IMG/VR virus record: IMGVR_UViG_3300031992_004563
Span: 32,001-96,000 of that record
Strand: one strand, 5' to 3'
Origin: a virus
Lineage: Duplodnaviria; Heunggongvirae; Uroviricota; Caudoviricetes
DNA length: 64,000 bases
This document shows positions 14,439 to 44,800 of this stretch, one piece after another. Made by a program: the position numbers and the translations under genes. Under the pieces are notes generated by a model. That model worked only from the letters and a program-made list of their open reading frames with translations, ran no database searches and was not told the DNA's origin. How positions within the stretch are numbered: position 1 is the first letter of the stretch; the number at the start of each line of letters is the position of its first letter.

Positions 14439-14678
14439 GGAGCTTTGGCAGACATGGTGTATGCGCCGGACTGATCATAGATTAGCAACTATAATAAAGA
14501 GCTAATTATCATATGAATGGGAATTGGGATACCATCGCTTGAGATAATATCAAAATAGTGGGAGAGGAAGGTGTTCTCCATAAAGGTTGATAAAATTTTT
14601 AAAAAATTTTATAATTTAGGTTCGAGTCCTAATATGGTAACAAATCCGGTTAACGAGGTTCGAGTCCTCGAGGCTCCG
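14439..14678 (+). tRNA. tRNA-Phe(GAA) with ~167-nt anticodon-loop intron (14475-14641)
   Basis: 5' half GGAGCTT...CCGGA CTGA; 3' half AAA TCCGG...TTCGAGT...AGGCTCC. Confidence 0.8.
14506..14641 (+). ncRNA. tRNA-like element nested in the tRNA-Phe intron
   Basis: 8-bp acceptor TTATCATA/TATGGTAA, D-like arm, T arm TTAGG TTCGAGT CCTAA; no canonical anticodon arm. Confidence 0.6.
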
Positions 14679-14702
14679 CAAATTTGAACATTGAAATAAT
14701 AT

Positions 14703-14775
14703 GGACCAGTAGCTCAAATAGTAGAGCACATCCCTGAAGAGGATGGTGTAGGCGGGGCAGTACCGTCCTGGTCCA
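14703..14775 (+). tRNA. tRNA-Phe(GAA), variant T loop
   Basis: CATCC CTGAAGA GGATG; T loop GGCAGTA. Confidence 0.85.
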
Positions 14776-14780
14776 CAAAT

Positions 14781-14960
14781 GGGTCAGTAGCTTAAAATGG
14801 ACAAAGCACGGTAAAAAGAAGTGGCCGCGGTGTCAATCAGTAATCTGAAATATGGTACTGTAATTTTGCGGAAGCACCGAAAAGAAGTGATATTCGAGTA
14901 AGGAAGCGCATTTTATGTGGCACCTTAAACATAATGCGGGTTCAAATCCCACCTGATCCA
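14781..14960 (+). ncRNA. tRNA scaffold with large inserts in anticodon and variable regions
   Basis: GGGTCAG/CTGATCC acceptor, D arm GCTT/AAGC, T arm GCGGG TTCAAAT CCCAC. Confidence 0.65.
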
Positions 14961-14972
14961 CGAAAATTAAAT

Positions 14973-15049
14973 GACCGAGTGCTCGAGTGGTTTAAGGGGT
15001 GTGGCCGCAACCCACATATTTTTCGTCAGTTCGAATCTGACCTCGGTTT
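14973..15049 (+). tRNA. tRNA-Cys(GCA)
   Basis: TGTGG CCGCAAC CCACA; U73; C at position 33. Confidence 0.85.
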
Positions 15050-15061
15050 CAAAAATAAAAT

Positions 15062-15151
15062 AGAGGAGTACCCAAGTTGGTGAAGGGACCGCATTGCTAA
15101 CGCGGCAGGTCGGAGAAATTCGGCGCAGGAGTTCGAGCCTCCTCTCCTCTA
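15062..15151 (+). tRNA. tRNA-Ser(GCT)
   Basis: Long variable arm; loop TTGCTAA. Confidence 0.9.
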
Positions 15152-15198
15152 CAAAATTATGTATTAATGTGTTTACCAATTTTGTCACTATAGTACTT

Positions 15199-15217
15199 AA
15201 ATAAATATAATATAAAA
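15199..15217 (+). promoter_or_regulatory. Class C (late-like) motif AAATAAATATAATATAAAA
   Basis: Identical 19-mer at 15199, 30644 and 37341, each just upstream of an endonuclease gene. Confidence 0.6.
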
Positions 15218-15233
15218 AGTATTTTATTTAATT

Positions 15234-16247
15234 ATGGAATATAAATGTATATGTGGAAAAGAATTTGATAATGCATTAGCATTAGGCGGGCATAAAGGTA
15301 ATTGCCAATAGGCTAAAGAAGAAAGATAGAAACAATTAAAAATTTTAAAATTAAAAGAAGATAATTATAATTGTATATGTAATTGTGGAAGAAAATTTAA
15401 AACACTAAAAAGTCTAAATTCACATGCTAGATTTTGTGATCAATATTAGAAAAAAGATAAATAGCTATCTAAATATTTAAATACAGAAACATTAATATAT
15501 AAATGTGAATGTGGGTATGAAACAAAAAATTATTAGTCATTAAATTCACATTTTTCTCATTGTAAATTACATAGGCAAATAAATAATAAAGATTGTTCAG
15601 ATGAATATTGGAATAAAAGAAATCATCCGGGTAAAATGTTAGGGTGGGATAATTTTTCAGAAGAGAAAATAAAATCAATATATAAAAAATGTTAGTTAAC
15701 ATTACATAATAAGTATAAATCTGGTGAATTAATACCGACTTTTATGGGAAAACAACATACTGAAGAAACTAAAAAACATTTATCAGATATTGCGGTAGAA
15801 CATAAATTAAATGGAACATCTCCAGCACATTTAGGTGAGCATATGTCATATTTAGAAAAATGGTTTTATAATGAAATTTTATAGAAATATAATATTTTAA
15901 ATAAATTTGATGTTGTAAGAGAATATTGCGAAAAACCATATTTTATTGATTATTCTTTTCCTAATATTAAAGTTGGGTTTGAAATGGATGGCATGTTTCA
16001 TTTAACAGATGAAAATCATATAAGACATGATAAAAAACGAGATGAATATTTAACTAGTATTGGTTGGACACTATATAGATATAATTATGAACAAATTAAA
16101 TATGATACTGATAAAACAATTGAAGATATATTAAATGTAATTCAAAAATATACAGATAATAAATTAGGAGAAGCTAAATTATATAGTTATCAAGAATATA
16201 AAAAATTAATTACCCCAGTACCCGAATTGGTATAGGGGCCAGATTAA
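15234..16247 (+). CDS. Free-standing homing-type endonuclease: 3 Zn fingers, NUMOD3, DUF559/Vsr-like domain (TAG=Gln)
   Basis: CxCG...HxxxC three times; FMGKQHTEETKKHLS; FIDY...FEMDGMFH; 8 in-frame TAG; stop falls inside tRNA-Leu. Confidence 0.8.
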
Positions 16248-16293
16248 GGATCTGGTGTCACAAGACATGAGGGTTCGAGTCCCTCCTGGGGTA
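16212..16293 (+). tRNA. tRNA-Leu(AAG)
   Basis: CCAGA TTAAGGA TCTGG; long variable arm; ACCCCAG/CTGGGGT. Confidence 0.88.
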
Positions 16294-16323
16294 CAATAAA
16301 TATTTAAATGAATAATTTAATCT

Positions 16324-16674
16324 ATGAATATTGAATATTCAGTTAAAGAAGAAACAACAGATTTTGGAAAGGTTTGGTATTTTACCGATGAAGAGAATGT
16401 ATCAAGATTTGCTCTTTATATGTATAATGATGAACCCCAAAATTTTTATTTATCTAATATATATGTAGATATTAAATATAGACAATCTGGGCGAGGAAAT
16501 TATATTTTAGAAAAAGCAACAGAAATTGCTAAAAAATACAATGCAGAAAAGCTAATGTTAAAGGTTCTTGATAAATCTTTTATGCATGAATGGTATGAAC
16601 GGCATGGATTTAAAGATTTAATATATGATGAAGAAGAAAATGAATATATTTGGATGATTAAAGAACTTAAATAA
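16324..16674 (+). CDS. GNAT acetyltransferase
   Basis: IYVDIKYRQSGRG motif A; WYERHGF. Confidence 0.85.
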   Translation: MNIEYSVKEETTDFGKVWYFTDEENVSRFALYMYNDEPQNFYLSNIYVDIKYRQSGRGNYILEKATEIAKKYNAEKLMLKVLDKSFMHEWYERHGFKDLIYDEEENEYIWMIKELK

Positions 16675-16704
16675 AATAGAAAATAAAAATAGAGGTTTAA
16701 TTGA

Positions 16705-16753
16705 AACTTCTATTTTTTCTTTTATATAATTTTTATTATTTTTGTATCGTTAA
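16705..16753 (+). promoter_or_regulatory. Class A promoter overlapping a terminator-like hairpin
   Basis: AAAATAGAGGTTT/AAACTTCTATTTT hairpin, then TATTTTTGTATCGTTAA. Confidence 0.7.
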
Positions 16754-16770
16754 TTAAAATACATAATTAT

Positions 16771-17085
16771 ATGAGCAAAAGTTATTCAAAAATAAAAAAA
16801 TTTGGTATTTGTACTGGTAGCAATACTGAATATTATCGTGAGAAGCGTCGTACTATTCGTGCAAAGGATAAACAGTTAATTCGTAATACCCTTGCTCATC
16901 ATAATGTATCTGAGTTTGATGAAGTATATACACCGCTTAATTTACCATTTAAAAACGATTGGAATGAGCCTACTGATGGTACTTTTGTAATGGATGCAAA
17001 ATCTATAGATAGAGATACAATTAAAAGTCCACATGGTGGATATGCAGGAATATATACCACAAAAGATGGTAAGATTAAAAAATAA
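16771..17085 (+). CDS. Hypothetical basic protein
   Basis: First ORF after promoter. Confidence 0.7.
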   Translation: MSKSYSKIKKFGICTGSNTEYYREKRRTIRAKDKQLIRNTLAHHNVSEFDEVYTPLNLPFKNDWNEPTDGTFVMDAKSIDRDTIKSPHGGYAGIYTTKDGKIKK

Positions 17086-17283
17086 AAATAATATGAAGTG
17101 CGAAAATTACATAAGAGACAAATATTGTAGAGGCTATAACATTTGGCCATGTACAAGAGAGGCAAGATGGAGATTGACATATTGGAATGGAAATTCTCAA
17201 TGCCTATGTGGAATATGTAAAGGCAAAATAATGCACGCAATTCGTGAAGAAGGTGGAGAAAACAGAACAAAAATTGAAAAATT

Positions 17284-17700
17284 ATGATAACAGTAAAAAG
17301 ACTTAAAGAGATAATAACATCAGAAGGTGATAATTGGAAAATTGAGTTTCATAAATGGGAACATATGTCTCCAACACCTGATGGTCCTTACCAAGGCTAC
17401 AAAGGTATGCCCAATATTGTTGGTGTTCGTATCATTGATATTAGCGAAAGAATTAGTGATATTGTTGGTTGTAAAATTCGAACATTCACAGTAGAGGATG
17501 ATATTGATGAGGATTTATTTGGCACACCTCAAGAAATTATTGATAAACTTTGTAAAGGTTTAAATGACAATGATTTCATTGATTTTGTTCTTGAGGTTGA
17601 AGAAACACCTGGCCATTCAGATCATATTCCTTTGCATATTAGGCTTTGCGATAAAGGTTACAGTGATAGAACAATTATAATTAGTGTTGATGAAGAGTAA
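17284..17700 (+). CDS. Hypothetical protein
   Basis: Operonic ORF. Confidence 0.7.
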   Translation: MITVKRLKEIITSEGDNWKIEFHKWEHMSPTPDGPYQGYKGMPNIVGVRIIDISERISDIVGCKIRTFTVEDDIDEDLFGTPQEIIDKLCKGLNDNDFIDFVLEVEETPGHSDHIPLHIRLCDKGYSDRTIIISVDEE

Positions 17701-17714
17701 AAAATTAAAATTAT

Positions 17715-17993
17715 ATGAAAAAAGCAAATAACAAAGAAAATAATATTAATGAATATTTGTTGGCCTTTTTAGGTCCATTGCTTGGAGTTGCTTTAGTAAC
17801 TCTTCCAACGTTGAGAACAATGTCCTTTATTAACTATCTTATTTTAGTTGGAGAAGTATATCTTTGTATTATTGGTTTTGTGGTAGCCTTTCTCATTTTG
17901 CTTGGGCTTGTAATGTTATTTGTAAGAATTCCGCTAATTGATAAGATACTTTTTTCAGAGGCATCAAAACATGATTATAGTGATGATATATGA
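17715..17993 (+). CDS. Small membrane protein
   Basis: Two hydrophobic segments. Confidence 0.65.
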   Translation: MKKANNKENNINEYLLAFLGPLLGVALVTLPTLRTMSFINYLILVGEVYLCIIGFVVAFLILLGLVMLFVRIPLIDKILFSEASKHDYSDDI

Positions 17994-18162
17994 GAACTAA
18001 TTTAGACGAAATAGAAGCAGACTTACATCAATGGGATAATACATGTGAACATTTAGGAGGTTATGAATGTGCAGAATGCTTATTAAGTCAAAACAATATA
18101 ACTTGTTTTTATTTAGAAAATCAAGAATGCTGTCCTAATTTTAAATCAAAATTTGAAGTATT

Positions 18163-18573
18163 ATGAATAAAGACATGGTAAACATTATTTCAAATGCATT
18201 AGTAACAATGGGTTATCGTACATCCGATTTTGAGACATATATGAAGCCTATTGGTTTTGCATTATTAATTGCAAAAATTAAACTTTCAAGTGAAAGCGAT
18301 GGTATAATTGTTGAAATTAAACTTGCATTTAATAATGCTACTACAGGTGAGATAACTTTTTGGGATCATAAAGATTTTGCTTGGGATTCTGCTGATGTGA
18401 ATGTTATTAAAGAAAAAGAAAATAAAACAGAGGAAGATATTTATAATGATGCATGCACTGAAATTGCATATGCAGAAGCATTTATTGGATTGGAACATGT
18501 TAGCATACAGCATAAATATCAGACATTTGCATTTAAAACATCTAACGATATTTTTCAACTTATAAAAATATAA
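18163..18573 (+). CDS. Hypothetical protein
   Basis: Operonic ORF. Confidence 0.7.
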   Translation: MNKDMVNIISNALVTMGYRTSDFETYMKPIGFALLIAKIKLSSESDGIIVEIKLAFNNATTGEITFWDHKDFAWDSADVNVIKEKENKTEEDIYNDACTEIAYAEAFIGLEHVSIQHKYQTFAFKTSNDIFQLIKI

Positions 18574-18579
18574 TAATTT

Positions 18580-18942
18580 ATGGCAAAAATTGGAGATAGA
18601 ATATATTTTCGTTGTTGGGATGGTAAAATCGAAACAAAGATTATTACCACCATTGAAGACAGACATGGTGTAGTTTACGATGATGGAAAAACTCGTATCG
18701 AGGACGACTATCAGATGTATAGCACTGGTCCTAATGAGGCAATTGAGTCTTATAACTGTTTGCCATCTGATGATCCAGATGTTGTAGAATTTATTCAATG
18801 GCATGGTGGCGAACAAGCAATGTCTGTAAAAGAGGAAATTGCGGCTTGGTTATTTTCAAAAGGCTATATTAGCGAACCTGATGATATTTTGGTAAAAAGT
18901 TTTTTTATCAATTTATATAATATTGATGAAGACGATTTATAA
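18580..18942 (+). CDS. Hypothetical protein
   Basis: Operonic ORF. Confidence 0.7.
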   Translation: MAKIGDRIYFRCWDGKIETKIITTIEDRHGVVYDDGKTRIEDDYQMYSTGPNEAIESYNCLPSDDPDVVEFIQWHGGEQAMSVKEEIAAWLFSKGYISEPDDILVKSFFINLYNIDEDDL

Positions 18943-18988
18943 ACTTTATCAAAATAATTTGATATAAAATATAAAACTTATAAAAAGT

Positions 18989-19183
18989 ATGGCAAAAATT
19001 ATTACTATAGAAGAACATTCTAAATTGAAGAGTTGCCACTGTGATAAAGGAAAACATCGATTTAGAGAAAATCCATTTGGAATTACATGGTGTGTTATTT
19101 GTGGACAACTATCAGTAAATAACAAAGGCAAAATTGAGCCATTACAAGAAGATGAAAAATTAATTATTAAATGTTATGAATGA
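18989..19183 (+). CDS. Small Cys/His protein
   Basis: CHC...H...CVICG. Confidence 0.6.
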   Translation: MAKIITIEEHSKLKSCHCDKGKHRFRENPFGITWCVICGQLSVNNKGKIEPLQEDEKLIIKCYE

Positions 19184-19493: not shown

Positions 19494-19495
19494 TT

Positions 19496-19729: not shown

Positions 19730-19734
19730 AAATT

Positions 19735-27816: not shown

Positions 27817-28325
27817 TTTGGAAAATAATGGTAATTTTTAAAAAAGATTATTTCATTATAAACTTTTTTGAAAAACCTTATATAAATTATAAATGCAACA
27901 GAGAAATCTGAAAACATTTTAAAAAGAGATCTTTGACGTATTGAGATTAGAAATTAAAAGAAAGAAATTTAATTGCCTAACTGAAATCCTGAAATATGGT
28001 TGCTAACCGTCAATTGTGGATCACACCACATAGTAATGGGAACCAGAGGGAAGGCAATACAATTATATAGCCAACATTCTTCCTGTGAAGGTTTTTTAGT
28101 TGGCAATTCGCCAACGCTTTGACGCAACAAGCGTTACCCTTAAGGGATTAGGAGTTGAGTCAATATTGTGAGGGAAAACACATAGAATTGACCCTATATG
28201 GGTTGATAAAACCTTTCTCGTTAAATTAGTCATTTGTACTATGATGCTTCGAGGACAATAAGAGAGATAGGTTGAGCAACCCTATCAAACCTTAGTTGAA
28301 ATAAACAACTATAAAAATATAAATC

Positions 28326-28426: not shown

Positions 28427-28874
28427 TCTAATAGTTGAAAGAAACAACTTTAAAAACTGTATAATAGAAATATTATATTTTATCTACTTTTGTAGATGCG
28501 TAATGATATAATACATATTGTTACAAAGTTTATAAGTGTTAGGATTGGAAGTGTCCATACTTAATGAGTGGTTGCCCACCGGATCTATTAAGGCCCATCG
28601 GTAACAGATGGAAACTCAACTTAGTCGGATAAATGGAAAAAGAAACTTTAAGTTCAATTTTGTACGAGTATGACTGAAAAGGGATTGTGCAAAATATATT
28701 TACCTTTGGTGTAATAACACGCTTATAAATCATTTTTATTTTACCATAGTGTATGAAACTATCTCGGTATAGAATGCACGCCTCAAGTAGGAAGGCTGGT
28801 TAGAACAGCAGGTAAAATAACAAGTTTAAGGTTCCTGCTTATAAACCTTTGACAATCTGGAAAGACAGATGACT

Positions 28875-28946: not shown

Positions 28947-29307
28947 CAGGTCCTGGTTTCTTTAGTGGAGATAAAATTACATGGCGATTAAAAAGACGAA
29001 ACTCCACAAATTTTTAAGCTAATCAGCCTAGTCTGAAAAGTAAGGTCAGTGTTTAGTCATTGGTAAAACGTCAATTCGTACGCCTGAAATAAAGATACTT
29101 AGCTTAAGTTTTCCGGATAACACCGGAGGTACATCTTCAAGCTTAGAAGAGACGAAGCACTGGATTTTACCAGTAGTAGCGAGGGGCGGTTCCTCGGAAG
29201 ATGGCAAAAATTCCAAAACTCTTGCTACAACAAGATGAGGTGGCGTTTATATAAACTATTTGTAATTGGTTGTAGACTTTTACAAACAAGTATATGTTCG
29301 AAAAATT

Positions 29308-29381
29308 GGAACATGGTGTAAGAGTGGTGAGCACGCTGGTTGTGAAGACCGGAGACTGGTGTGGTTCGATTCCCCCGCCCA
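29308..29381 (+). pseudogene. Degenerate tRNA-like sequence
   Basis: D-like arm, CTGGT/ACCGG stem, GGTTCGATTCC; acceptor stem does not pair. Confidence 0.35.
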
Positions 29382-29586
29382 AACTAAAATCCATAAGTTT
29401 AGTAGTATCTTATACGCGTTAAAAAACTACTCGGGTTTATAGCCCCAACCTGAATTTTAATATATTACTGATGGGGCATTTCAAACTGAGCGAGTAAACA
29501 CTGCAATGTTGAAACACTCTGGCGTTCATAATATATTAGTAAATCATTGCTTGCAGGTTTTGATCGAAAGTTGAATGTTCGTAAAA

Positions 29587-29704
29587 TGATAATGGTGTAA
29601 ATTGGACAGCACGCCCCATGGTGGGGAGGTAGAAGACCAAGGTTGGGCAGCCGTAAAACCGAAAGGGGAACCTGGTGGCAGTTGGTTCGAGTCCGCTTTA
29701 TCAA
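29587..29704 (+). ncRNA. tRNA scaffold with 3-nt TGG anticodon loop and ~50-nt variable insert
   Basis: TGATAA/TTATCA; GTGT/GCAC D stem; CCCCA TGG TGGGG; GG TTCGAGT CC. Confidence 0.6.
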
Positions 29705-30106
29705 CAACGTAGTTATATAGGACGCTATATAACGAACAGACTACATGGATGAAGGAAAGCCGCCTCCACAAGGAAGGAGAAACCAGGATCGAAACTGGGG
29801 GTAGTCCTAAATTTTCTCTAAGTCCAATTTTTTAGAGTGATAGCTTTGTATACCAAGCGAAGAAGGTGGGGTATTACGGATGTGAAGATTCCTTTGAGAA
29901 TAAATTCTTGCGCAAGGGTTTATTTGAAATGCATTCAAAAATTGTAGTGATAATGGACATCCAAAAACAATTAAAGAATCTTATTTTTGGCGGAGGCCAC
30001 TAATCCTCTTAGCCAGTGTATAAGTCCTATTACGTGAACGGAGACCCACATTAAACGACCTTTAATAGGCGGCATGTACAGTGAACGGTGAATCACTATA
30101 AAAACG

Positions 30107-30193
30107 CGTTGATGGTACACATTTAGAAAGAACCATACAAGGAACGATATTAGTGGTCAGGTCCCAAGAGAGATAAACACACTAGGCTCTCAA
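30107..30193 (+). ncRNA. Three-hairpin ncRNA family, copy A
   Basis: CGTTG-H1-ACAA-H2-CA-H3(GAGAG..TAG..CTCTC)-AA, shared with 32589 and 32886. Confidence 0.55.
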
Positions 30194-30531
30194 TTTTATT
30201 AAAGGTTAAACACTGAGTGACGCTGGATGGCGTTCCTAAGGGTGTCGGGTAAGTGCATCAAAGGCTAAGCGAAGCATAACAGCCACATTTAAAGGGTGAT
30301 TAGCTAGTTCCCTCATTTTATAATGATTTTATATTAATAATAAGTTTTTTGAGTAAAAACAAAAAGAAACTCAATTCTTTAATTACAATGTTAATTGAAG
30401 TCTTATCTTTACCACCGGAGGTTGTTATACCACGGGCTTATTTTAGAAATTAGAAAGTAAGAGTTTTAATTATGTTTTTTAAGGTTTCTTTTCCTAATTT
30501 TCTTTAACTGACTAAAGTAAAATTTGAAACC

Positions 30532-30677: not shown

Positions 30678-31709
30678 ATGAGAATGAGAAATGGTTTAAG
30701 TGAAAGTGAAGCTGGAAAATTAGGAGCTATTGCTGCAAAAAAGATTTATGAAGAACGTAAATTAAAAGCAATTCAAATATATAATGAAAATCCTAATTTA
30801 TGTGCTTATTGCAATAACCCAATTCCATATATAAAACGTGGAAATAAATGTTGTTGTCAAAGTCATTCAGTTTCATATTCAAATTTACAAAGAACACCTG
30901 AACAAAATAAAAAGAAAGCATAGAGTATTAAAAAATATTATGAAAATAAATTAGTAATTAAAGATAATATACATGATCGTAAAGTATTTACAAAACCAGA
31001 AGATATCGAAAAACATAGAAAGATAAAATATTGTAAATATTGTGGTTGTGAAAAAGGTAAATGTATTGATGAATATGTATGTAAAAAACATCAAATATTT
31101 AAAACTTTAGAAAAATTTGGATTTGATAATTCAAAAATTGGAACAGTTGATATAGTAGATGAATATTATAAAATAAGAAATATAATTTTAGATTTTTATT
31201 TAAAAAATGGTTCAGATGAAACATTATTAAAAGATTAGTTTAATTATATTTCGGGTGGAGCAAATTTTCATAAAATATTAAAATCTTTAGATATTAATAG
31301 TAGAAATCAATCTGATGCTCAATAGTTTTCTATTGAGCATAATAGAAGAGATTTAATTCCAGTAGGAATACATTATAAATTTAAAGATGAATATCATATA
31401 ACATGGGATAATAGAGAAGTTTATTTACGATCAAGTTATGAAACTGATTTTGCAAATGAACTTGATAATAAACAAATTTATTATGAAGTAGAAACATTAA
31501 GAATAAAATATTTTGATACACAAAGGAATCAATTTAGATTAGCAGTTCCTGATTTTTATCTACCTGAAACAAATATGATAATTGAAATAAAATCTATATT
31601 TACTTTAGACATTCAAAATATGAAAGATAAAGTTAAAGCATATAAAGATTTAGGATATAATTTTAAATTAATTCTTGAACATCAAGAAGTTGATTTAAAT
31701 TCATTATAA
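30678..31709 (+). CDS. Free-standing PD-(D/E)xK (TnsA-like) endonuclease, 343 aa with TAG=Gln
   Basis: 3 in-frame TAG; Cys clusters; YLRSSYE, VPDFYL, IIEIKS. Confidence 0.82.
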
Positions 31710-31828: not shown

Positions 31829-32114
31829 TAAACTATAAAATCCAAATATGACTAGTTTGGTTGACACCATGAAAGAATGGTCCGCTATAGGGTGATGTAG
31901 TCGTTTGCAGACCCGTTAGTTTACCGTTAAAGATCCACGGGATGCATGGTTAATTGGTTTTACCGCAGGATGGAGATTAGTCACTTCAAAACCAAACCTT
32001 AGTAAGAAGATGCAAATTCCGAACAGTGGCTTGGGGAAATATAATTGCATGTTTATTTCCCTATAATCCAATAGTTGAGAAAACAACTTAAATAAATCAA
32101 AGTAAATTTACTTC

Positions 32115-32196
32115 AGCGAGATAGTTTAATATTTGCTACCAGAATACTGTGCACATGACACAGTGGATGTCAGTTGAAGTCTGGCTCTCGCAACCA
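32115..32196 (+). tRNA. Atypical tRNA-Met-like (CAT) with encoded CCA
   Basis: A1-A72 mismatch; CTGTG CACATGA CACAG; T loop TTGAAGT; ACCA end. Confidence 0.65.
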
Positions 32197-32588
32197 ATAG
32201 TTGATGTAAACAACTTTAAAAACCAATATTAAACCACGAAAAAGACTAGAGTTACAGCGATTTCCAGTAGCCGAGGACGAAGCCGTGTGGGTCACCATTG
32301 AAATCAAGACCTCTTCTAGTGAGAAGGGTGACATTACTCTCTGGAATTTACGAGTAATGGGATGGGCCAAAAACAACACTATGTGGTTTATACTTATAGT
32401 TGAAGGAAAACAACTTTAAAAAAGACAATAACCTATGAATAATTAGGTGCGTTAAACCAGCTACACAAATGCTGTATGTGATAGTGATAAAATGCAGCCA
32501 TGGAGGCTAACAAAAAGATTGCAAGCTTTTTGAATGCATTAATAACTTCCATGATTAAATAGTTGAAGGACATACAACTTTAAAAACC

Positions 32589-32671
32589 CGTTGGTGTTTC
32601 AGCGGATACAAACACACAAAGGGAGCGTCGGCCGAGTCCACAGAGGGTTGAACCCGTAGACCCTCAAACTT
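32589..32671 (+). ncRNA. Three-hairpin ncRNA family, copy B
   Basis: GTGTTT/AAACAC, ACAAA, H2, GAGGGT/ACCCTC, AAACTT. Confidence 0.55.
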
Positions 32672-32885
32672 ATAGTTGAGGTACAACAACTGAAAAAACC
32701 AATAAAAGTATTATAACTGAAGTTATTTTACTACGTTAACATATCCACAACCGTATATCTTGAAAAATAGTGGTGGTTCACAAAACAAATGTTTATCATT
32801 CGAATAATTCATAAGTATCCATGGAAGGCTTATGATGCGGATACTGTTAATATTTTATAGTTGAGGGACAACAACTTACCAAACC

Positions 32886-33007
32886 CGTTGATGGCTCAGT
32901 GCTGGAATATGCGAGTTGGAACCATACAAAGTGCGGTTACGTTACGAGGCACCACGAGAGTTGATTGGGTATCAGGTATTTAACCGTCGGACTAGACTCT
33001 CAAACTT
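32886..33007 (+). ncRNA. Three-hairpin ncRNA family, copy C
   Basis: ATGG/CCAT, ACAAA, GTGC/GCAC, GAGAGT/ACTCTC, AAACTT. Confidence 0.55.
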
Positions 33008-33177: not shown

Positions 33178-33184
33178 CATAGTG

Positions 33185-33273
33185 AAATATATAGCTCAAT
33201 GATGGCGCACTAAAACATGTAGAGCACCGGCCAGTTAAGTCGGCGATATGAGGTTTGATTCCCATTATATTTT
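33185..33273 (+). tRNA. Atypical tRNA-Asn(GTT) with enlarged D loop
   Basis: CCGGC CAGTTAA GTCGG; all-AT acceptor; 24-nt D loop. Confidence 0.6.
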
Positions 33274-33370
33274 GAATCGGTCACTGATATTGTCAGGAAG
33301 CAATTTCTGGCTGGGATATAAAAGTATCACACTGATAAACTATTTTGAAACTTATATATAAATTATATTA

Positions 33371-34532: not shown

Positions 34533-34675
34533 GGCCCATTCGTCTATCGGCTAGGACGCCAGATTTACGTTGGAAAGAAAACCATACTATTAAAAACTCC
34601 AGTTTGGAATATAATATTTGATTATATTATATTTCACTCATTCTGGAAAGAGCAGTTCGATTCTGCTATGGGCTA
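34533..34675 (+). tRNA. tRNA-Glu(TTC) with ~71-nt anticodon intron (34567-34637)
   Basis: CCAGA TTT [insert] TCAT TCTGG; spliced arm equals that of the adjacent intact tRNA-Glu. Confidence 0.85.
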
Positions 34676-34972: not shown

Positions 34973-35350
34973 CGTGAAAAACCGTAGTGTATACTTTATA
35001 TGTTTCACCAAAATGCGGTAACCTCCATATGCCGGCAAACATAAAATATGGCAAGGACAAAGTGAAAACGTATTTTCAGAAAAAAGTTGAAATTATATAC
35101 TGAATGTAATAGAGTCTGGTCATGGCCTGACATTTTGTAGGAGAGTTAACTATTCTGCAAGGTCATATGGAATCAACCCAGTGAAAGACTACGTATATAT
35201 CTCATGAGATTTCAACTTCATTATGGTGCTCTTCTAGAGAGCATGCGGGACAGCGACGTGGCAACCGCAGTGGAAGATTCTCTTCTCCAATAAATACTAG
35301 GCGTCTCCAATAGTTGAAATATGGATAACAACTATAAAACCATATAATAT

Positions 35351-35422: not shown

Positions 35423-35427
35423 CAGAG

Positions 35428-35527
35428 GCCCATGTCTGAAATGGCTTGCAGGTTCGAGTCCTGTCTTTGGTGTTTCATCATTTTATGGTGTTCCTACCGA
35501 GGTGGCGAAAGTGGTAAACGCGTGGGT
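35428..35527 (+). tRNA. Circularly permuted Leu-type tRNA gene (3' half first, break in anticodon loop)
   Basis: GCCCA, long variable arm, T arm, CTTTGGT-G, 23-nt linker, ACCGAGG, TG, GCG..GGTAAA..CGC, G, TGGGT. Confidence 0.75.
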
Positions 35528-35736
35528 AAGATTGTTGTTGGCTATAACAACATTAAACAAATATAGCAACTTTAACTAATATATTATGTTAGACACTAAT
35601 TATATTCCTTAAATGAAAAGTAAAGTATTGAGTAATAGAATACATGAGGGTTCGTACCCTGGAGTAGAAATCGACCAAGAAATGCATATAATTATATGGG
35701 TGCAACTCCCATAATAATATTTTAGTTAATCATATT

Positions 35737-37376: not shown

Positions 37377-38093
37377 ATGTTATATTGTAAATATTGTGGC
37401 AAAGAATGTAAAAATTTAAATTCATTAAGACAGCATGAGATTAGGTGTAAACAAAATCCTAATAGAATTAAAATGGATTTATCAAAATGGAAGTGCCCAC
37501 CAGAAAAAAGAAAATTAGGAACAAAAAATAAAGTTGCTTTAACTAATGGAAATAAAAACAAATATCTATTTCCTAATGAAGCAGAAGAATTTTTACAAAA
37601 TAATTTAGATTGGCATAAAGGATTTACAATTATAAATCATGGTCCAAATTTAGGAATTGCATCCACTCCTGAAAAAGAGGCTGAGAGAAAAAGAAAAATT
37701 TCAGAAACAATGAAGAAAAATCCATTAGCTGGTGGTAGAAGAATAGGTAGTGGACGAGGAAAACAAGGATGGTATAAAGGAATTTATTGTGATAGTTCTT
37801 GGGAACTTGCATTTTTGGTATATTATTTAGATCATAATAAAAATATAAAGAGATGTGAAGAACGAAGAGAATATATTTTTAATAATGAAAAACATACTTA
37901 TATTCCTGATTTTATAACAGATGATGGTATTATAGAAATAAAGGGATATAAAACACAACAATGGAAATCCAAATTAGAACAAAATCCTGATATAAAAGTT
38001 TTATATGAAGATGATATTAAACCATATTTAGATTATGCAACATCATTATATGGCCAGTATTATTGGGAAGTTCTATATGAAAATAAAAAATAA
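37377..38093 (+). CDS. Free-standing PD-(D/E)xK (TnsA-like) endonuclease with Zn finger
   Basis: CKYCGKEC..H...C; RKRKISETMK; CDSSWELAF; YIPDF; IIEIKG. Confidence 0.85.
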   Translation: MLYCKYCGKECKNLNSLRQHEIRCKQNPNRIKMDLSKWKCPPEKRKLGTKNKVALTNGNKNKYLFPNEAEEFLQNNLDWHKGFTIINHGPNLGIASTPEKEAERKRKISETMKKNPLAGGRRIGSGRGKQGWYKGIYCDSSWELAFLVYYLDHNKNIKRCEERREYIFNNEKHTYIPDFITDDGIIEIKGYKTQQWKSKLEQNPDIKVLYEDDIKPYLDYATSLYGQYYWEVLYENKK

Positions 38094-38182: not shown

Positions 38183-38316
38183 CCGTTAAATATAAACCTG
38201 CATAGTAAAGTTCCTATTATAGGTTCGATTCCTAAAATTACTGGATGGTTATTACTTTCCGCGGGTTTAACTTATAATAAAATGCATAAAGTTGTTCCTA
38301 TTTAGTTTATTGAAAA

Positions 38317-38397
38317 GCAGGAAGTCGGGGGTTCGAGTCCCTCTCTCCACACAAATAATATAAAATGTGGAGATAACTCAGATGGTAGAGTGCCCGC
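38317..38397 (+). tRNA. Circularly permuted class-I tRNA gene (anticodon ambiguous)
   Basis: GCAGG AAGTC GGGGG TTCGAGT CCCTC TCTCCAC A, 15-nt linker, GTGGAGA TA ACTC AGATGGTA GAGT G CCCGC. Confidence 0.8.
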
Positions 38398-38995
38398 CTA
38401 AACATACACTTCGCGTTTTATCCCCCTTATAATAGTTTGAACATTGCTATTTAAATAATGTTACGCCTTACCCGGTTTAAGTTGAAAGAGTGCCCGGGCT
38501 GTAGATCTAAAAGCCAAAAGCTAATCTATAAAAAACTTATCGCTCCATTTGCACTTGGAAGGTTGAGTGCAATTTTTAATATATCATTACTGAGGTGGAT
38601 AGGAGAAGCATATAAAACCCGAATCCTGAGGAAATGGCGTAACGACAAAAAGTTAGAAGGGCCGAAGAAACCGTCGTTGCTTGATATACGGTGTGGAAAG
38701 GCGTGGTAAGTAATGATTATTTTTATAATTCTCAAACCTTGTGGGTGCCAGAAAACACCACATGCAGAAAGTATTTAATATTGCTAGCGATTAAAGAAAT
38801 TTGGTTCGTTATTGAGAATTTTTTCTTTAATAAACATTATCGAATCCATTTAAGTAATATTCGATATAACTGAGAATAATTACATTAATATTAAATGGCG
38901 TTGCTACTCATCTGGTATGGAGGCATACTGAGTACCTTGGTCTATTACGAGAAGATAGGCCGGTGTTTAAATTTAAGATAATGTTTATTTTTAAT

Positions 38996-39376: not shown

Positions 39377-39387
39377 CAAAATTACAT

Positions 39388-40111: not shown

Positions 40112-40114
40112 CTT

Positions 40115-40319: not shown

Positions 40320-40793
40320 ATAAATTAATATTCGAGGGTCTACGAGTGAATTAACACGGAGAGCCAAACCAAAAACAACCGAGTAGGTTTGGAGAGAGTA
40401 GAGATGGTGTGGCGTAAGTGGACAGGTTGTAGTTTGTGATATGCCTAGAAGTGGTGGCCTGCTGGAAAATGGTGGCATGTAGAATATTGATTTTTAATTT
40501 TTTAATGTGAAGGATAACACAATAAAACCCTTGTTGCTAACATTCTTGGGCAGGTAATGAAAATGGCTAGGTGTATGACCGGTGACTTGGTGAAATTCCA
40601 ACATTCCTAGTGAAGAAAAATGATTCGCGGTTAATTTTTCTTAAAGGTCATTTTTAAATATAATCACGATACTAAGACGCGTACCGACGGGTCAGTTCCA
40701 GTATTCTGGTATAAAACTCTCATATATGTCCAAATATATTTTGGTGCACCTGAAGTTGGATGAAGAGAGGAACATTAGTATGTGTGGTTTTTT

Positions 40794-40865
40794 GCCCCGG
40801 TGGTGAAATGCATATCACGAGTGACTACGGATCACTTATTCTGGGTTGGAATCCCAGCTGGGGTA
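40794..40865 (+). tRNA. tRNA-Arg(ACG)
   Basis: AGTGA CTACGGA TCACT; T loop TTGGAAT. Confidence 0.87.
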
Positions 40866-40925
40866 CTATAGAAACAAAGTTCATTTAGAGCCTATAATAA
40901 TTAAAATAATAAAACTATATTATAT

Positions 40926-41471
40926 ATGAGAATCGATTCATTAGAAAGCATCTGGAATAACTTGGGGTATGTTATTCAGAAACATAATGATTATAAAAAG
41001 ACTAAGAGAAATCTTAGAAAGCTGGTTTATAATTGTTCTCCAAAACATATGAAAGATGGTTCAATAAAAAACACTTTTATTGAAGTTGGATATCTTTATT
41101 TAACAAGTGCTGTTAAAGATGATTCTCAAGGTTTTGTATGGTTTGATTGTACTGATCATATTAATTATGATGAAGAACATAGAATTATATTCCCAACAAT
41201 GCCTGCACAATTTTGGGATAAATTAGTTGGAAAGCATAATACTAATATTGCTCAACTTTATAATGATAAAACAAAAGAATATTTGCATAAAGATTCTAAT
41301 ATAGAATGGAATATTGTAAAGGGCCAAGCATTATTTACTACAAGGCAAGAAGCAGAGGATTATATTAAACAATGTGAAAATGGTGAAATTGAGCTTCCTG
41401 AATTCTTTTTAAAAGTTGAAAGAGTTATGACTAATCCAACACGAGAAGATTATGAGAACATTGGAAAATAA
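40926..41471 (+). CDS. Hypothetical protein
   Basis: 181-aa ORF. Confidence 0.75.
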   Translation: MRIDSLESIWNNLGYVIQKHNDYKKTKRNLRKLVYNCSPKHMKDGSIKNTFIEVGYLYLTSAVKDDSQGFVWFDCTDHINYDEEHRIIFPTMPAQFWDKLVGKHNTNIAQLYNDKTKEYLHKDSNIEWNIVKGQALFTTRQEAEDYIKQCENGEIELPEFFLKVERVMTNPTREDYENIGK

Positions 41472-41483
41472 ACAACAATAATT

Positions 41484-41723
41484 ATGGAACTTAAAGATAT
41501 TGTAAAAGGCCAAGCCGATTTATCTTGTGTAATTGCAGGAGGAATTGCTGAATATATTTTAACAGATATAAATGGAATCAAATATCAATTGCAAATTAAT
41601 TTGGCAGATAAACATGATGTTGGTGAAACTGCTACATTCCAAACACATTATGATAAAGCAATTATTTTAATGAGATGGATTCGTAGAGCAATTGAAAAAG
41701 ATGAATTAATTAAACTTAATTAA
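41484..41723 (+). CDS. Hypothetical protein
   Basis: KAIILMRWIRRAI C-terminus; operonic. Confidence 0.7.
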   Translation: MELKDIVKGQADLSCVIAGGIAEYILTDINGIKYQLQINLADKHDVGETATFQTHYDKAIILMRWIRRAIEKDELIKLN

Positions 41724-41731
41724 TAATTCTT

Positions 41732-41804
41732 GAGCCGGTAGCTCAGATGGTAGAGCAGCAGACTCTTAATCTGCGGGCCGTGGGTTCGAGTCCCACCCGG
41801 CTCA
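41732..41804 (+). tRNA. tRNA-Lys(CTT)
   Basis: GCAGA CTCTTAA TCTGC. Confidence 0.93.
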
Positions 41805-41809
41805 CAAAT

Positions 41810-41883
41810 GGCGAGGTAGCTCAGTTGGTTAGAGCGCAGCATTCATAATGCTGAGGTCGTGGGATCGTGACCCTCCCTCGCTA
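41810..41883 (+). tRNA. Elongator tRNA-Met(CAT)
   Basis: CAGCA TTCATAA TGCTG; T loop ATCGTGA. Confidence 0.87.
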
Positions 41884-41890
41884 CATAAAT

Positions 41891-41964
41891 ATCCTATTAG
41901 CCCAATCGGTAGAGGCAATAGTTTCAAAAACTATACAGTGTTGGTTCGAATCCAACATGGGATA
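41891..41964 (+). tRNA. tRNA-Leu(CAA) with short variable loop
   Basis: ATAGT TTCAAAA ACTAT; 5-nt variable loop; A73. Confidence 0.82.
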
Positions 41965-42032
41965 CAAAAGATAAATGACATTTATGGTTATTGCACATCC
42001 AAAAAGCATGTATAAAAATAAAAATAAATGTT

Positions 42033-42359
42033 ATGAAGAAGATTTTTTTAATTATGTGTCTTCTATCATCATTTATCTTTTGTAATGCCGAACCTTCGTA
42101 TGAAAGTTCAACAAAAAAGGCAAAAGAATCACGCATAGAAGTGGTGAATGAGAAGACAGTTATTTTCAAAAATGTCGTAAAAATAGAAATAATTACTAAA
42201 GATAAAAATCAAATAACATATGTATATGATTTGAAAAACAGTAAATTAGTAATTGTTGCTAAAGGTGCATTTGAGATTGATACAAAAATGGGTGATTATT
42301 TAGTTCAATCTTCTAAGAAAATAACAAAAACCGAATATGATTTTATTGAAGAAATTTAA
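42033..42359 (+). CDS. Secreted hypothetical protein
   Basis: MKKIFLIMCLLSSFIFCNA signal peptide. Confidence 0.7.
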   Translation: MKKIFLIMCLLSSFIFCNAEPSYESSTKKAKESRIEVVNEKTVIFKNVVKIEIITKDKNQITYVYDLKNSKLVIVAKGAFEIDTKMGDYLVQSSKKITKTEYDFIEEI

Positions 42360-42582
42360 TCATATTTATTTATGTTAAATATAATTAAATATATTTATGA
42401 ATAATTATATTTTTATATTTAACAAAATTTTTGAAATAAATATAAAAAGAAAATAATTTTTAAGAGGTGGTATCCTTAAAAACTATTTTTAGAAATATAA
42501 GTTATAATTATAAAGCATTTTAATGTTTTATTATACAAGATACCACTTTTAAGTATAATAATCATTTTAATGCTTTTATTTT

Positions 42583-43791
42583 ATGAAGTTAGTTGAACAA
42601 CATATTATAAAATCTAATCATTAGTTTTACAAAGAACTTGATAATTTATGCTTTTTATCTAAGAATCTATATAATCAAGCTCTTTATAGGATTAGACAAT
42701 AGTTTTTTGAAGATAAAACTTTTAAAAATTATTATGATTTAAATAGAGAGCTTCATGATGAAAACTAGATAGACTATAGATCACTTCCATCTAATACATC
42801 ACAAGAAACATTAAAACTAGTTAACCAAAATTATAAATCATTTTTCTAGAGTTTAAACAAACAAATTAAAGGCGTTAAAATTCCTAAATATTTAGATAAA
42901 ATTAAAGGAAGATAGATAGTTGTTTATAATTATTCAACAATATGTGGAAAAAAAGATTTAGGATTTTTTAAAATTCCAAAAACTAATTTACAATTTAAAA
43001 CTAAATAGAAAAATATTAAGCAAGTTAGAATAGTTCCTAAAAATAATTATATAGTTTTAGAAGTTATTTATGAAGCTTCTATCAAAGAATTATTAAAAGA
43101 TAATAAAAGATATATGTCTATTGATTTAGGAATTGATAATTTAGCTAGTTGTTCTAGTAATGTAACTAAATCTTTTATAATCAATGGAAAACCTGCCAAA
43201 TCAATAAATCAATATTATAATAAAAAGAAAGCTAATCTTCAATCTGAATTAAAACTTAAACAAAATAAAAATACATCAAAGCAAATATAGAATTTAACTT
43301 TAAAGAGAAACAATAAAATAAAAGATTATTTTCATAAAGCATCCAGATATATTGTTAATCAATTAGTTAACCAATCCATTAATACACTTATAATAGGAAA
43401 GAATGATGGATGGAAACAAGAGACAAATCTAGGTGTTGTTAATAATCAAAATTTTGTAAATATTCCTCATTAGATGTTTATAAATCAACTAAAATATAAA
43501 TGTCAATTAGAAGGAATAAATGTCATTGAACAAGAAGAAAGTTATACTAGCAAAGTAAGTTTTTTTGATAATGACTATATTCCAACTTATAAACAAAATG
43601 ATGAACTATTTAATCCATCTGGAAAAAGAATCAAAAGAGGTTTATATAAAACTAAAAATAATTTATTAATTAATGCTGATATAAATGGTTCATTAAACAT
43701 AATGAGAAAATATTTAAATGTAGTTTGTGATGACTTAATTAGTTTAACAAATAGAGGGTTTGTGATTAATCCAGTTAAAATTTAGTTTTAA
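42583..43791 (+). CDS. tnpB: IS200/IS605-family TnpB, 402 aa with TAG=Gln
   Basis: MKLVEQHII..SKNLYN; MSIDLGIDNL; IIGKNDGWKQ; QEESYTSK; GKRIKRGLY; INADING; several in-frame TAG. Confidence 0.9.
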
Positions 43792-43854
43792 CAAATAAAA
43801 ACTTGTGAATAGTTTTTAATATCATTTGATTCCAAATGTATCAGAAATTTATAA

Positions 43855-44028
43855 GAATTTATGCAGTCCATCGCGCCCATTCCAAAAGATATAAGAGGTG
43901 AGGAAGTTCAGGACACTTATTTGGAAGTGAAAGTCTAAGTATAGGAGGTTACCCAAATTACTGCCCCATGGTAAGACGAATAGTTAAATGATGGAAATAG
44001 GTACAGAATCCTGGCTATTACATAATTC
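43855..44028 (+). ncRNA. rnpB: Minimal RNase P RNA (catalytic core, specificity domain reduced to one hairpin)
   Basis: GAGGAAGTTCAGGA (43900-43913) pairs with ACAGAATCCTGGCTA (44003-44017) as P4; CCATC/GATGG as P2; GAATTTATG/CATAATTC as P1. Confidence 0.75.
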
Positions 44029-44060
44029 ATATATTTAATAAAAATAAATGTTTAATAATT

Positions 44061-44129
44061 ATGATACCAACATTAACAGTTTACATGCTAATTGCTATAC
44101 CTATTATCTATATAGCAATTAAAAAATAA
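44061..44129 (+). CDS. 22-aa hydrophobic peptide
   Basis: MIPTLTVYMLIAIPIIYIAIKK; single TM with basic tail. Confidence 0.4.
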   Translation: MIPTLTVYMLIAIPIIYIAIKK

Positions 44130-44197
44130 ATAAAATGGTGTTATAATTAAAATTTACAACACCATTTATTTTTATTTAAAATTAAAACCTAAACACA

Positions 44198-44596
44198 ATG
44201 AATTACAACATTCAAGAAAAGAAACACTATTTCATTGTAAATGGCGTTAAAGTTCATTGGAATTTTAAATTATTGCCTAAAGGTTTTGAAGCAATAACAT
44301 TATTTGGGCATGTTTATGATGTTCATCCAAAAAATGAATTAAAAACATTTTTAGAAACCTATTGGGGAAGAGTAATGGTTAATCATGAAAGAATTCATAT
44401 AATGCAAGCCGAATCTTTTAAACTTAGATATTTTGCATTTTATATAATATATCTATGGTGGTGGATAAAAGGTTTGTTTAAATATAATTTTAGTAATTTT
44501 GAATCATACTATAAAATTCCATTTGAAAGAGAAGCTTATCATAATGAAAAAGATTTTTATTATGATGAAGTACATTGGAAAGAATTTAAATGGTGA
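44198..44596 (+). CDS. HExxH-containing hypothetical protein
   Basis: AITLFG, NHERIHIMQ, PFEREAY. Confidence 0.75.
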   Translation: MNYNIQEKKHYFIVNGVKVHWNFKLLPKGFEAITLFGHVYDVHPKNELKTFLETYWGRVMVNHERIHIMQAESFKLRYFAFYIIYLWWWIKGLFKYNFSNFESYYKIPFEREAYHNEKDFYYDEVHWKEFKW

Positions 44597-44640
44597 TTTT
44601 TGTAATGGTCTTTACAAAAATGATCATTTATTTTTTATTT

Positions 44641-44715
44641 GCGGGTGTAGCTCAGTTAGCTTAGAGCGTCTGACTTCCAATCAGAAGGCCCTGGGTTGAA
44701 GTCCCAGTACCCGCA
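44641..44715 (+). tRNA. tRNA-Gly(TCC)
   Basis: TCTGA CTTCCAA TCAGA; T loop TTGAAGT. Confidence 0.88.
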
Positions 44716-44800
44716 CGAATGTTAAGGTAGCGCCTTAACTAGTTGCAGTTATGAGATCGCGGAATCTGCAATGAATAAAAATAATAAAAGCCGCGTACAT

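Follow-up and report, generated by a model that had tools for sequence, protein, structure and literature searches.

The stretch analysed here, called the window, comprises 64,000 nucleotides and corresponds to C1:32001-96000 of a 380,519-nt virus record (the whole record, labelled G000, is 76% complete). It carries an array of genes for tRNAs and other non-coding RNAs (ncRNAs), and our subject is a small pseudoknot that recurs in this array at RNA 3' ends and at the start of tRNA introns, together with the tRNA mimics that close these introns. The window derives from the 380-kb genome of a Lak-like rumen phage in which TAG is recoded. Coding density in G000 is 0.84 with TAG read as sense and 0.60 under code 11, the protein encoded ahead of the array matched only the 15 Lak records among 50,697 phage records (32-38% identity), and the best-matching sequencing runs are sheep gut metagenomes. 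Among annotated phages no DNA-level homologue of the array was found, and in an Rfam search tRNAs alone exceeded the gathering score. Related or compared loci bear L-numbers (L003, L125-L160, L183 etc.), and papers are cited by accession or DOI. The host was taken as Prevotellaceae by assumption from the Lak relatives (PMC6784885).

The pseudoknots consist of a short stem (S1), an A-rich linker and a segment that pairs back to the loop (S2). The family built on S1 AGTTG/CAACT, with its immediate neighbours, occupies the following positions:

28292..28320, plus strand: AGTTG-family pseudoknot, S2 ATA/TAT
28431..28458, plus strand: AGTTG-family pseudoknot, S2 AG/CT
30078..30109, plus strand: family member with S1 compensated to AGTGA/TCACT; AGTTG copies head homologous cassettes
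32071..32098, plus strand: AGTTG-family pseudoknot, S2 GA/TC, 2 nt past CCA
32113..32196, plus strand: tRNA-like RNA flanked by two pseudoknots, CAT loop with A33, CCA encoded at its end
32197..32224, plus strand: AGTTG-family copy, 2 nt past CCA; S2 degenerate, GG/CC in homologues
32396..32423, plus strand: AGTTG-family copy without S2, hairpin and A run only
32559..32588, plus strand: AGTTG-family pseudoknot, S2 GG/CC
32672..32700, plus strand: AGTTG-family pseudoknot, S2 GGT/ACC
32857..32886, plus strand: AGTTG-family pseudoknot, S2 GGG/CCC
35310..35345, plus strand: AGTTG-family pseudoknot, S2 ATATGG/CCATAT, 2 nt past CCA

All nine AGTTG/CAACT copies reported by the first-pass annotation are present at the positions given there as AGTTG-N6..12-CAACT, and the arrangement CCA-AT-stem is present at the three sites for which it was claimed. 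Its total of about 18 pseudoknots has to be corrected, as its own list holds 20 positions (9 + 11). In the entire 380,519-nt contig there are 14 inverted repeats of the form AGTTG-N6..12-CAACT. A stricter family pattern occurs 8 times on the RNA strand of non-coding tracts (32859 is missed) and 0 times antisense; the background is a mean of 0.0 in 200 shuffles and 0 on both strands of the other 349 kb, so that the comparison with coding and shuffled DNA proposed at first pass leaves this family without a background. A covariance model yielded 10 window matches at E<=0.005, 9 of them members of its training set, all on the plus strand and all within the array, while its best match in the remaining genome reached only E 0.37. 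The AGTTG family is clearly confined to the RNA strand of the non-coding tRNA/ncRNA array. Model R1 detected no AGTTG-type copy in Lak-A1, nor among the 150 candidates that were scored in each of two host genomes, and the evidence from Lak-A1 therefore rests on its introns. As for the second helices listed earlier, those at 14477, 28167, 30344, 32674, 32859, 35312, 35533, 38431, 40506 and 44743 are present, whereas that at 32398 is lost (GG faces GA) and that at 32199 is degenerate; judged by eye, the helix at 34569 requires a bulge and that at 34974 a long inner loop.

Pseudoknots with other stems lie at the following positions, in addition to those of the introns and the permuted gene described below:

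28165..28195, plus strand: TGTG/CACA + AGGG/CCCT, at a cassette breakpoint; no homologue found
30344..30373, plus strand: variant of the first-pass annotation, probably chance; unsupported in 5 homologous slots
34974..35019, plus strand: long-loop pseudoknot immediately 3' of tRNA-Met C74; S2 compensated in L125 and L137
36501..36549, plus strand: longer-loop pseudoknot; both stems compensated in L128
38429..38462, plus strand: cassette-leader pseudoknot; two other, unrelated pseudoknots fill the same slot in 11 related loci
40504..40534, plus strand: TGTG/CACA + AAGG/CCTT; no homologue found
44743..44796, plus strand: long-loop pseudoknot ahead of tRNA-Lys; conserved in L129 and L137

For these variants the same comparison is far less favourable. 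The generic H-type architecture matches 29 times in the array versus 15.3 +/- 4.1 in 40 shuffles and 15 antisense, which is only about twice the shuffled level and within the range of coding DNA (mean 19.4, maximum 31). As proof, the generic descriptor was therefore dropped as too permissive (43 versus a mean of 26.9 in 12 shuffles; 29 versus 15.3), and a filter for flanking adenines (12 versus 3.0) was picked post hoc, after inspection of the data. Matches of a broad viral scan were likewise mostly chance; an aquatic 'family' (L003/L005/L006/L062) resembles the reverse strand of coding DNA. Since the architecture is common, single variants need the support of homologues. Homologues or a shared slot back 30080, 34569, 34974, 35533, 36501, 38431 and 44743, with longer-loop forms at 34974, 36501 and 44743. 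The variant at 14477, for which no homologue was found, has its intron position as sole support, none was found for 28167 or 40506, and 30344 is missing from all five homologous downstream RNAs.

Relatives were collected with a pattern that fixes S1 and a GG loop (36 loci, several overlapping). Together with the window they provide 115 distinct motif sequences and 123 distinct copies with upstream context, a sample biased toward GG loops by the search. S2 is Watson-Crick at both pairs in 77 of 114 scorable copies versus 63.3 after shuffling and, among non-GG loops, matched in 7 of 17 versus 1.15, the shuffles ignoring relatedness. G-U pairs are retained by the GG/TC (9) and GG/CT (3) copies, and such variants fit the RNA strand only. 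In alignment A1, 12 cells changed on both sides versus 3.0 expected by shuffling; only 70.8% of S2 is paired there, partly owing to unaligned linker length, and some copies lack it. Covariation in the second helix, claimed at first pass, is thus a weak signal in a 2-bp helix. Stronger evidence comes from a slot test. The cassette after 38431 is headed in the window by AATAGT/GCTATT + AACATT/AATGTT, in nine loci by AGTG/CACT + TGCA/TGCA and in two loci by AGTTG/CAACT + AGG/CCT. Three unrelated pseudoknots head one cassette, which argues that the fold rather than the sequence is selected.

Between the motif copies lie RNAs of 75-450 nt, most of which end in a closing helix a few bases short of the next copy, and the copies precede ncRNAs rather than open reading frames (ORFs). 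Cassette ends seen in at least two loci have more than one downstream partner in 26 of 35 cases, and CCA stands immediately 5' of the motif's AT in 19 of 123 distinct copies. The arrays L125-L160 contain dozens of different structured RNAs of this size without Rfam names, many of them CCA-ended and shuffled among genomes. One recurrent family without Rfam match (ACAAAG, GAGAGATG, closing CTAGRCTCTC helix) is found at window 30110-30200, 32588-32671 and 32886-33007 and in many of L125-L160, and its 32588 copy begins with its own pseudoknot. Elements with T-arms that ARAGORN does not call lie at window 29031-29200, 29313-29390, 29590-29705 and 33180-33275. The change of partners at the motif could also mean that it is a DNA-level recombination or insertion site, which shuffles cassettes and marks mobile inserts and has no role in RNA. 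The near identity of the AGTTG family and the existence of intron-less alleles (a contig of run X4, see below; PMC6784885) agree with this. We nevertheless consider a mere DNA site very improbable, because one slot is filled by unrelated sequences of the same fold, G-U variants fit only the RNA strand, no tyrosine integrase was found in the incomplete G000, and ordinary recombination between repeats explains the shuffling, a RecA-family gene being present in the phage.

Two split tRNA genes in the window relate the pseudoknots to tRNA introns:

14439..14474, plus strand: 5' exon of split tRNA-Phe(GAA)
14475..14506, plus strand: intron-opening pseudoknot, TC + S1 ATAG/CTAT, S2 ATTAGC/GCTAAT
14530..14641, plus strand: intron-closing tRNA mimic with T-arm, acceptor stem, A73 and C74, the predicted 3' splice site
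14642..14679, plus strand: 3' exon of tRNA-Phe through its own C74
34533..34566, plus strand: 5' exon of split tRNA-Glu(TTC)
34567..34598, plus strand: intron-opening pseudoknot, AC + S1 GTTGG/CCA(T)AC (one bulge), S2 AG/CT; homologues in L129, L147 and L157
34606..34637, plus strand: intron-closing 12-bp tRNA minihelix + A73 + C74
34638..34676, plus strand: 3' exon of tRNA-Glu

In both introns (14475-14641 and 34567-34637) the pseudoknot begins 2 nt inside, as the first-pass annotation had stated; the C74-terminated tRNA mimic at the 3' splice site, a second ruler, had escaped it. We looked for excisions by which an anticodon loop of 7 nt would be restored and obtained 35 candidates. Of these, 16 were kept, one was dropped as a near-duplicate, and 18 were dropped because they combine halves of adjacent tRNAs or extend across a group I-like intron and have no register in common; two introns were added by hand, one from L137 and the Lak-A1 Phe intron from Table S6 of PMC6784885. 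The resulting 18 split tRNA genes span the window, its relatives and Lak-A1 and are related, amounting to about 13 independent introns. A register ending in N73-C74 after a stack of T-arm and acceptor stem exists in all 18, compared with 0-5 for shifted registers, a count that is partly circular as registers were picked by this 3' rule. The closing element is either a cloverleaf mimic or a bare 12-bp minihelix and resembles an RNase Z substrate, with at least 4 of 5 T-stem pairs in 18/18 and 7 of 7 acceptor pairs in 17/18. The independent test is consequently the 5' end. There, a pyrimidine is present at +2 in 18/18 and a purine at +3 in 17/18 introns, and a hairpin with A-tail starts at +3 in 16/18, compared with a background of 15% for the hairpin and 3.4% with the pyrimidine/purine signature. 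Neighbouring registers also show a hairpin in 8-14 cases, which makes the 5' ruler less sharp. S1 varies freely among the introns (AGTG, GTTGG, AGTATC, AGATGT, TTCAG, ATAG, ACAGG).

The registers yield canonical loops that match the Pro(TGG), Thr(TGT), Glu(TTC) and Lys(TTT) bodies, and a cut after N73 instead would give the anticodon of another amino acid in the Pro, Thr and one Glu case. Since the splice position is not fixed (after 34, 35 or 36), the rulers must lie inside the intron. A Cys(GCA) reading of the gene at 14439, one base off, was rejected because it breaks both rules.

These introns are the same objects, in the same phage group, as the Lak megaphage tRNA introns that were published as 'enigmatic' in 2019 (Devoto et al., PMC6784885): short inserts not of the group I type in the anticodon loop of tRNAs of the Lak clade. 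Each of the four intron types of Table S6 begins with two bases that precede a short hairpin and an A run, and has a tRNA-like element at its other end; for three types this was measured on the DNA of Lak-A1, and the Gly intron was judged by eye. In the available part of that paper a possible tRNA is mentioned for the Thr intron alone, and neither a 5' signal nor a C74 rule nor a mechanism is given; the available part of PMC8346664 (Crisci 2021) merely mentions introns in Lak tRNAs, and in literature that mostly excludes subscription journals we found no paper on their signals or mechanism. On the reverse strand of L183 (Lak-A1, 18854-19018), the published intron-bearing tRNA-Tyr(GTA) reads as Asn(GTT) under both rules, in agreement with its G73, its short variable loop and a separate class II Tyr in Lak-A1. 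We rejected an intron artefact as the origin of the universal TTA suppressor of Lak, as the single row examined has no intron. Another large phage has a Leu tRNA with a 23-nt insert (PMC6784885 Table S6, JGI.trna6) that, by eye, starts with AT, a 5-bp hairpin and an A-rich tail and has no 3' mimic.

These elements do not match three established intron classes. Group I tRNA introns would have a U before the 5' site, a 3' G, a P7 core and more than 200 nt, whereas the 18 introns measure 70-167 nt and end in C. Group II introns would start with GUGYG and carry domains V and VI, whereas here the starts are AT, TT, CT, AC, TC or GC and there is no Rfam match. In archaeal and eukaryotic tRNA splicing, EndA makes two cuts at a bulge-helix-bulge before a ligase acts, and a permuted gene needs a circular intermediate. 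Unlike in that system, no bulge-helix-bulge is apparent by eye at the junctions and the splice position floats; EndA (PF01974) was not found in the 76% of G000 available, positive controls having matched in four archaea. Long G-ending group I-like introns do exist beside the pseudoknot-type introns, in tRNA-Leu, Lys and Ser genes of relatives:

L127:7767; L128:8604, 9336 and 16782; L133:2460; L146:1705; L148:1529; L162:6680 (oriented coordinates): long G-ending group I-like introns

C74 is also a general trait of the phage tRNAs. Position 74 is C in 27/27 window tRNA calls (one of them an intron mimic), 127/131 calls in relatives and 32/33 in Lak-A1/B1 regions, while position 75 is C in just 2, 8 and 1, respectively, and a full CCA is rare. 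Prevotellaceae tRNA genes encode C74 in 50/50 cases (30 loci, three genomes) and CCA in 4, which identifies C74 as a host trait. RNase Z, RNase E/G and RNase Y exceeded the cut-off in 4/4 Prevotellaceae genomes, RtcB in 1/4 and RNase J in 0/4; none of the five was found in the 76%-complete G000. A spinach chloroplast tRNase Z fraction cleaves after C74 (PMC3161902), and there, too, genes encode C74 without CCA and the tRNA shape directs the 3' cut. By this precedent and the 50/50 host genes, we infer that the host RNase Z would cleave after C74. In contrast to ordinary tRNA punctuation, the predicted cut in the introns would mark a splice site, and some of the mimics are no more than a 12-bp minihelix. 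The Synechocystis RNase Z reportedly shows a similar shift in cut position.

That the pseudoknot is a punctuation signal dividing an RNA polycistron, as proposed at first pass, is supported by its place between partner-changing cassettes, 2 nt after CCA and 2 nt inside 16 of 18 introns. An exonuclease block, one form of the signal considered then, is unworkable at the introns, where a 5' block would destroy the 5' exon and a 3' block would leave the knot attached; this geometry requires an endonucleolytic cut at the 5' end. Nor does the element behave as an exonuclease-resistant RNA, since the RNA upstream is a retained exon or a CCA end and RNase J is among the enzymes that no host genome yielded. 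The other two forms were a nuclease site and self-cleavage, and we favour the nuclease site, cut by a protein, since only adenines are shared between variants. The model that we consider slightly on the probable side of even combines a protein cut 2 nt before the pseudoknot, an RNase Z cut after the C74 of the mimic and joining by a phage ligase. The compact A-rich pseudoknot would be the shape signal for a protein endonuclease that cuts just 5' of it, the RNase Z of the host would cleave the nested tRNA mimic after C74, and the exons would be joined by an ATP-dependent RNA ligase of the phage. The same 5' cut may give the array RNAs their 3' ends, with a finished CCA where one is encoded, and the pseudoknot would remain on the next RNA as a leader. 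What is directly visible is the motif and its position, a C74-terminated mimic in every split tRNA examined, and the enzyme genes.

Within this model, host RNase E/G and an unannotated phage protein appear to be equally plausible nucleases, either of them short of an even chance, and RNase Y a clearly weaker candidate. Cleavage by RNase E and by RNase Y can be positioned by RNA structure downstream of the cut (10.1101/341578, PMC5222698, PMC11321564), and RNase E favours U at +2 (PMC5222698, PMC8682795), as with the pyrimidine at +2 here; in the case of MicL a stem-loop serves RNase E as a ruler (10.1101/341578). The element described here differs in being a pseudoknot.

Alternatively, the pseudoknot could itself be a tiny ribozyme that cleaves its own RNA 2 nt upstream of the fold, with phage healing enzymes and ligase completing the splicing. 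Its placement recalls the theta ribozymes, which are small RNAs with pseudoknots next to the 3' ends of tRNAs in recoded gut phages and are cut on their own 5' side (PMC10879173). Self-cleavage makes no demand on the upstream sequence, genes for PNKP and a 2H cyclic phosphodiesterase are present in the phage, and our profile scans of the phage identified no nuclease gene. We still regard it as unlikely. The element is a single H-type knot of only about 30 nt, which also stands at intron starts and between ncRNAs. It has neither the nested double pseudoknot nor the catalytic C of theta ribozymes, and no unpaired G or C is invariant, only adenines, which an A-minor triplex can explain. No ribozyme of Rfam matched, the theta- or hepatitis delta virus-like fold (P1, P1.1, P2, P3, catalytic C in J4/2) was not recognized, a rough descriptor matching one tRNA T-arm (35425) and none of the pseudoknots, and RNA contigs that bridge ten sites argue weakly against fast and complete cleavage.

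Another possibility is that the pseudoknot does not set the cut at all and shields the 5' end of the downstream RNA from 5'-end-dependent decay after less specific AU-rich cleavage. The motif directly heads each cassette, compact pseudoknots block RNase E scanning, and RNase E/G is encoded by all four host genomes. Such a protective role seems improbable, because an excised intron needs no shield, yet 16/18 introns have the motif in a fixed register, and because RNase J did not exceed the cut-off in the four host genomes.

Candidate joining and healing enzymes came from a Pfam scan of 277 ORFs of 125-720 aa, which left out one paralogue family and shorter or longer ORFs. It matched two RNA ligases (window 51205-51906; G000 316367-317044), PNKP, the 2H phosphodiesterase, a CCA-adding enzyme and Thg1, and a third ORF has a weak match to an Rnl5-type ligase, below the cut-off.

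51205..51906, plus strand: ATP-dependent RNA ligase (PF09414, E 1e-22) that may join the exons; Lak-A1 has its homologue in three pieces

The pieces of the Lak-A1 homologue, about 1.4 kb apart, are perhaps interrupted by introns (L418-L420, Lak-A1 290567-294073). The 5' phosphate that RNase Z leaves on the 3' exon suits an ATP-dependent ligase but not RtcB. A cyclic phosphate, should the 5' cut produce one, could be healed by the kinase-phosphatase and 2H phosphodiesterase of the phage. Note that RNA repair genes are common in large phages, so that these genes permit the model and do not prove it.

The RNA runs X3 and X4 come from one sample, may include DNA and are available as contigs, in which molecule ends are invisible. 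Both contain long exact contigs across the array; the small-share runs X21 and X23 were left out of the evidence. In one X4 contig, 34566 is followed directly by 34638, precisely as predicted for the junction, which fixes the register without proving splicing. Contigs start at 35424 and 35425 (X3, X4), where the cut after the fMet C74 (35423) is predicted and which DNA run X1 bridges, a weak hint from one study. The interior of the intron is uncovered even in X1, so that a coverage hole means nothing, and loose ends at 34566/34638 were discarded as evidence since they match other tRNA-Glu genes and occur in DNA too. It is conceivable that both cuts occur and that the halves are never ligated, tRNA halves and mimics serving as decoys for host anticodon nucleases or the genes being dead; the RNA contigs show no spliced RNA, and several array RNAs are atypical tRNA look-alikes. 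The junctions, however, restore canonical 7-nt loops that match the tRNA body, no intact tRNA-Phe is among the 33 tRNA calls of G000, and ligases are encoded by the phage. Halves without ligation therefore seem a poor explanation, of low probability.

Several points weigh against the model of two cuts and ligation. We infer that cutting occurs, which nuclease is responsible and that exons are ligated; the RNA contigs show neither an RNA end nor splicing, and the scans identified no cutting nuclease in a genome that is 76% complete. RNA contigs bridge the pseudoknots at 28167, 28294, 28433, 30080, 32561, 32674, 32859, 34974, 36501 and 38431 as well as many tRNA ends, which means that uncut precursors exist. 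The upstream part of the joined X4 contig includes 309 foreign letters, so that it probably represents the intron-less allele of a relative. The published RNase E ruler measures 5 nt (MicL), not 2, C74 inhibits several RNase Zs (PMC7479834), and the host is only assumed from the Lak relatives. In addition to the partly circular 3' count and the incomplete pairing of S2 mentioned above, the relatedness of the 18 introns has to be considered, and the Lak Thr intron (offset 3) and the L129 Ala intron (offset 5) deviate from the 2-nt rule.

A circularly permuted Leu-type gene is a weaker case for the use of both rulers:

35424..35472, plus strand: 3' half of a circularly permuted Leu-type tRNA-like gene, right after tRNA-fMet C74 (35423)
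35496..35530, plus strand: 5' half of the permuted Leu-type gene
35531..35567, plus strand: pseudoknot closing the permuted gene, AT + TGTTGT/ACAACA, S2 GCTATA/TATAGC

Its 5' half stops 2 nt before the knot at 35533, as expected from the pseudoknots that the first-pass annotation had placed at permuted-tRNA ends. Further points on the negative side are that the joined loop would have the atypical A32 A33, that the gene has G73/T74 and thus lacks its own C74, and that its homologue in L125 lacks the upstream C74 element. The second such end, 38431, did not hold, as this knot, some 30 nt away from the permuted Phe half, serves as the leader of a cassette. The permuted tRNA-Phe-like gene itself (window 38305-38400) has an anticodon-stem mismatch and fits neither splice rule. 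Permuted Leu-type genes follow straight after the C74 of an upstream tRNA at L148:140-300, L156:4661-4820 and L160:7007-7170; they then carry a different, G+C-rich pseudoknot-like element and do not fit the rules.

Other known systems resemble the array in part. In type III toxin-antitoxin arrays and CRISPR repeats, a repeated small structured RNA is cut into units by a nuclease. The copies described here are, in contrast, separated by 75-450-nt structured RNAs, are not tandem and have no short spacers; Cas6 (PF10040) was not found in G000, while its controls matched in four, and the ToxN profile PF13958 had no match in G000 nor in its positive control. The topology is similar to that of the preQ1-I riboswitch, for which Rfam gave no match, and the copies precede ncRNAs rather than ORFs of que genes. 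An integron-like array is not indicated either, as the tyrosine integrase profile PF00589 was not found in the incomplete G000 (controls matched in 14).

Further genes of the phage may be recorded here. The 33 ARAGORN tRNA calls in G000 include no amber suppressor despite TAG recoding; it may lie in the missing 24% or be split. The phage encodes transfer-messenger RNA and SmpB (G000 269450-269849 and 255718-256161) and, by Pfam, the anti-defence proteins Acb3 (CBASS inhibitor) and Tad6 (Thoeris inhibitor; G000 158217-159041 and 339127-340047). Three IS605/TnpB-type genes, with TAG read as sense, lie at window 42583-43788 and G000 6840-8108 and 143318-144505, and putative free-standing endonuclease ORFs, two of which read through TAG, lie within the RNA array at window 15234-16247, 30678-31709 and 37377-38093.

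Taken together, we are probably dealing with a new class of tRNA introns, in which a 5' pseudoknot and a 3' tRNA mimic recruit endonucleases with single-base precision and a phage ligase splices; in addition, dozens of undescribed structured RNAs, which form a shuffled library, would be punctuated by this pseudoknot, which also closes a circularly permuted tRNA. If true, this would be a route of tRNA splicing in a bacterial cell without a self-splicing intron or splicing endonuclease; should the unlikely case of self-cleavage apply, the 30-nt pseudoknot would be the smallest natural self-cleaving ribozyme. Anticodon calls would be corrected (Lak 'Tyr' to Asn), dozens of new phage ncRNAs would be delimited by their boundaries, and a portable 30-nt RNA-processing tag would become available. 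For the Lak phages, the model predicts how their unexplained tRNA introns may be removed, and its two exact rulers make the question testable.

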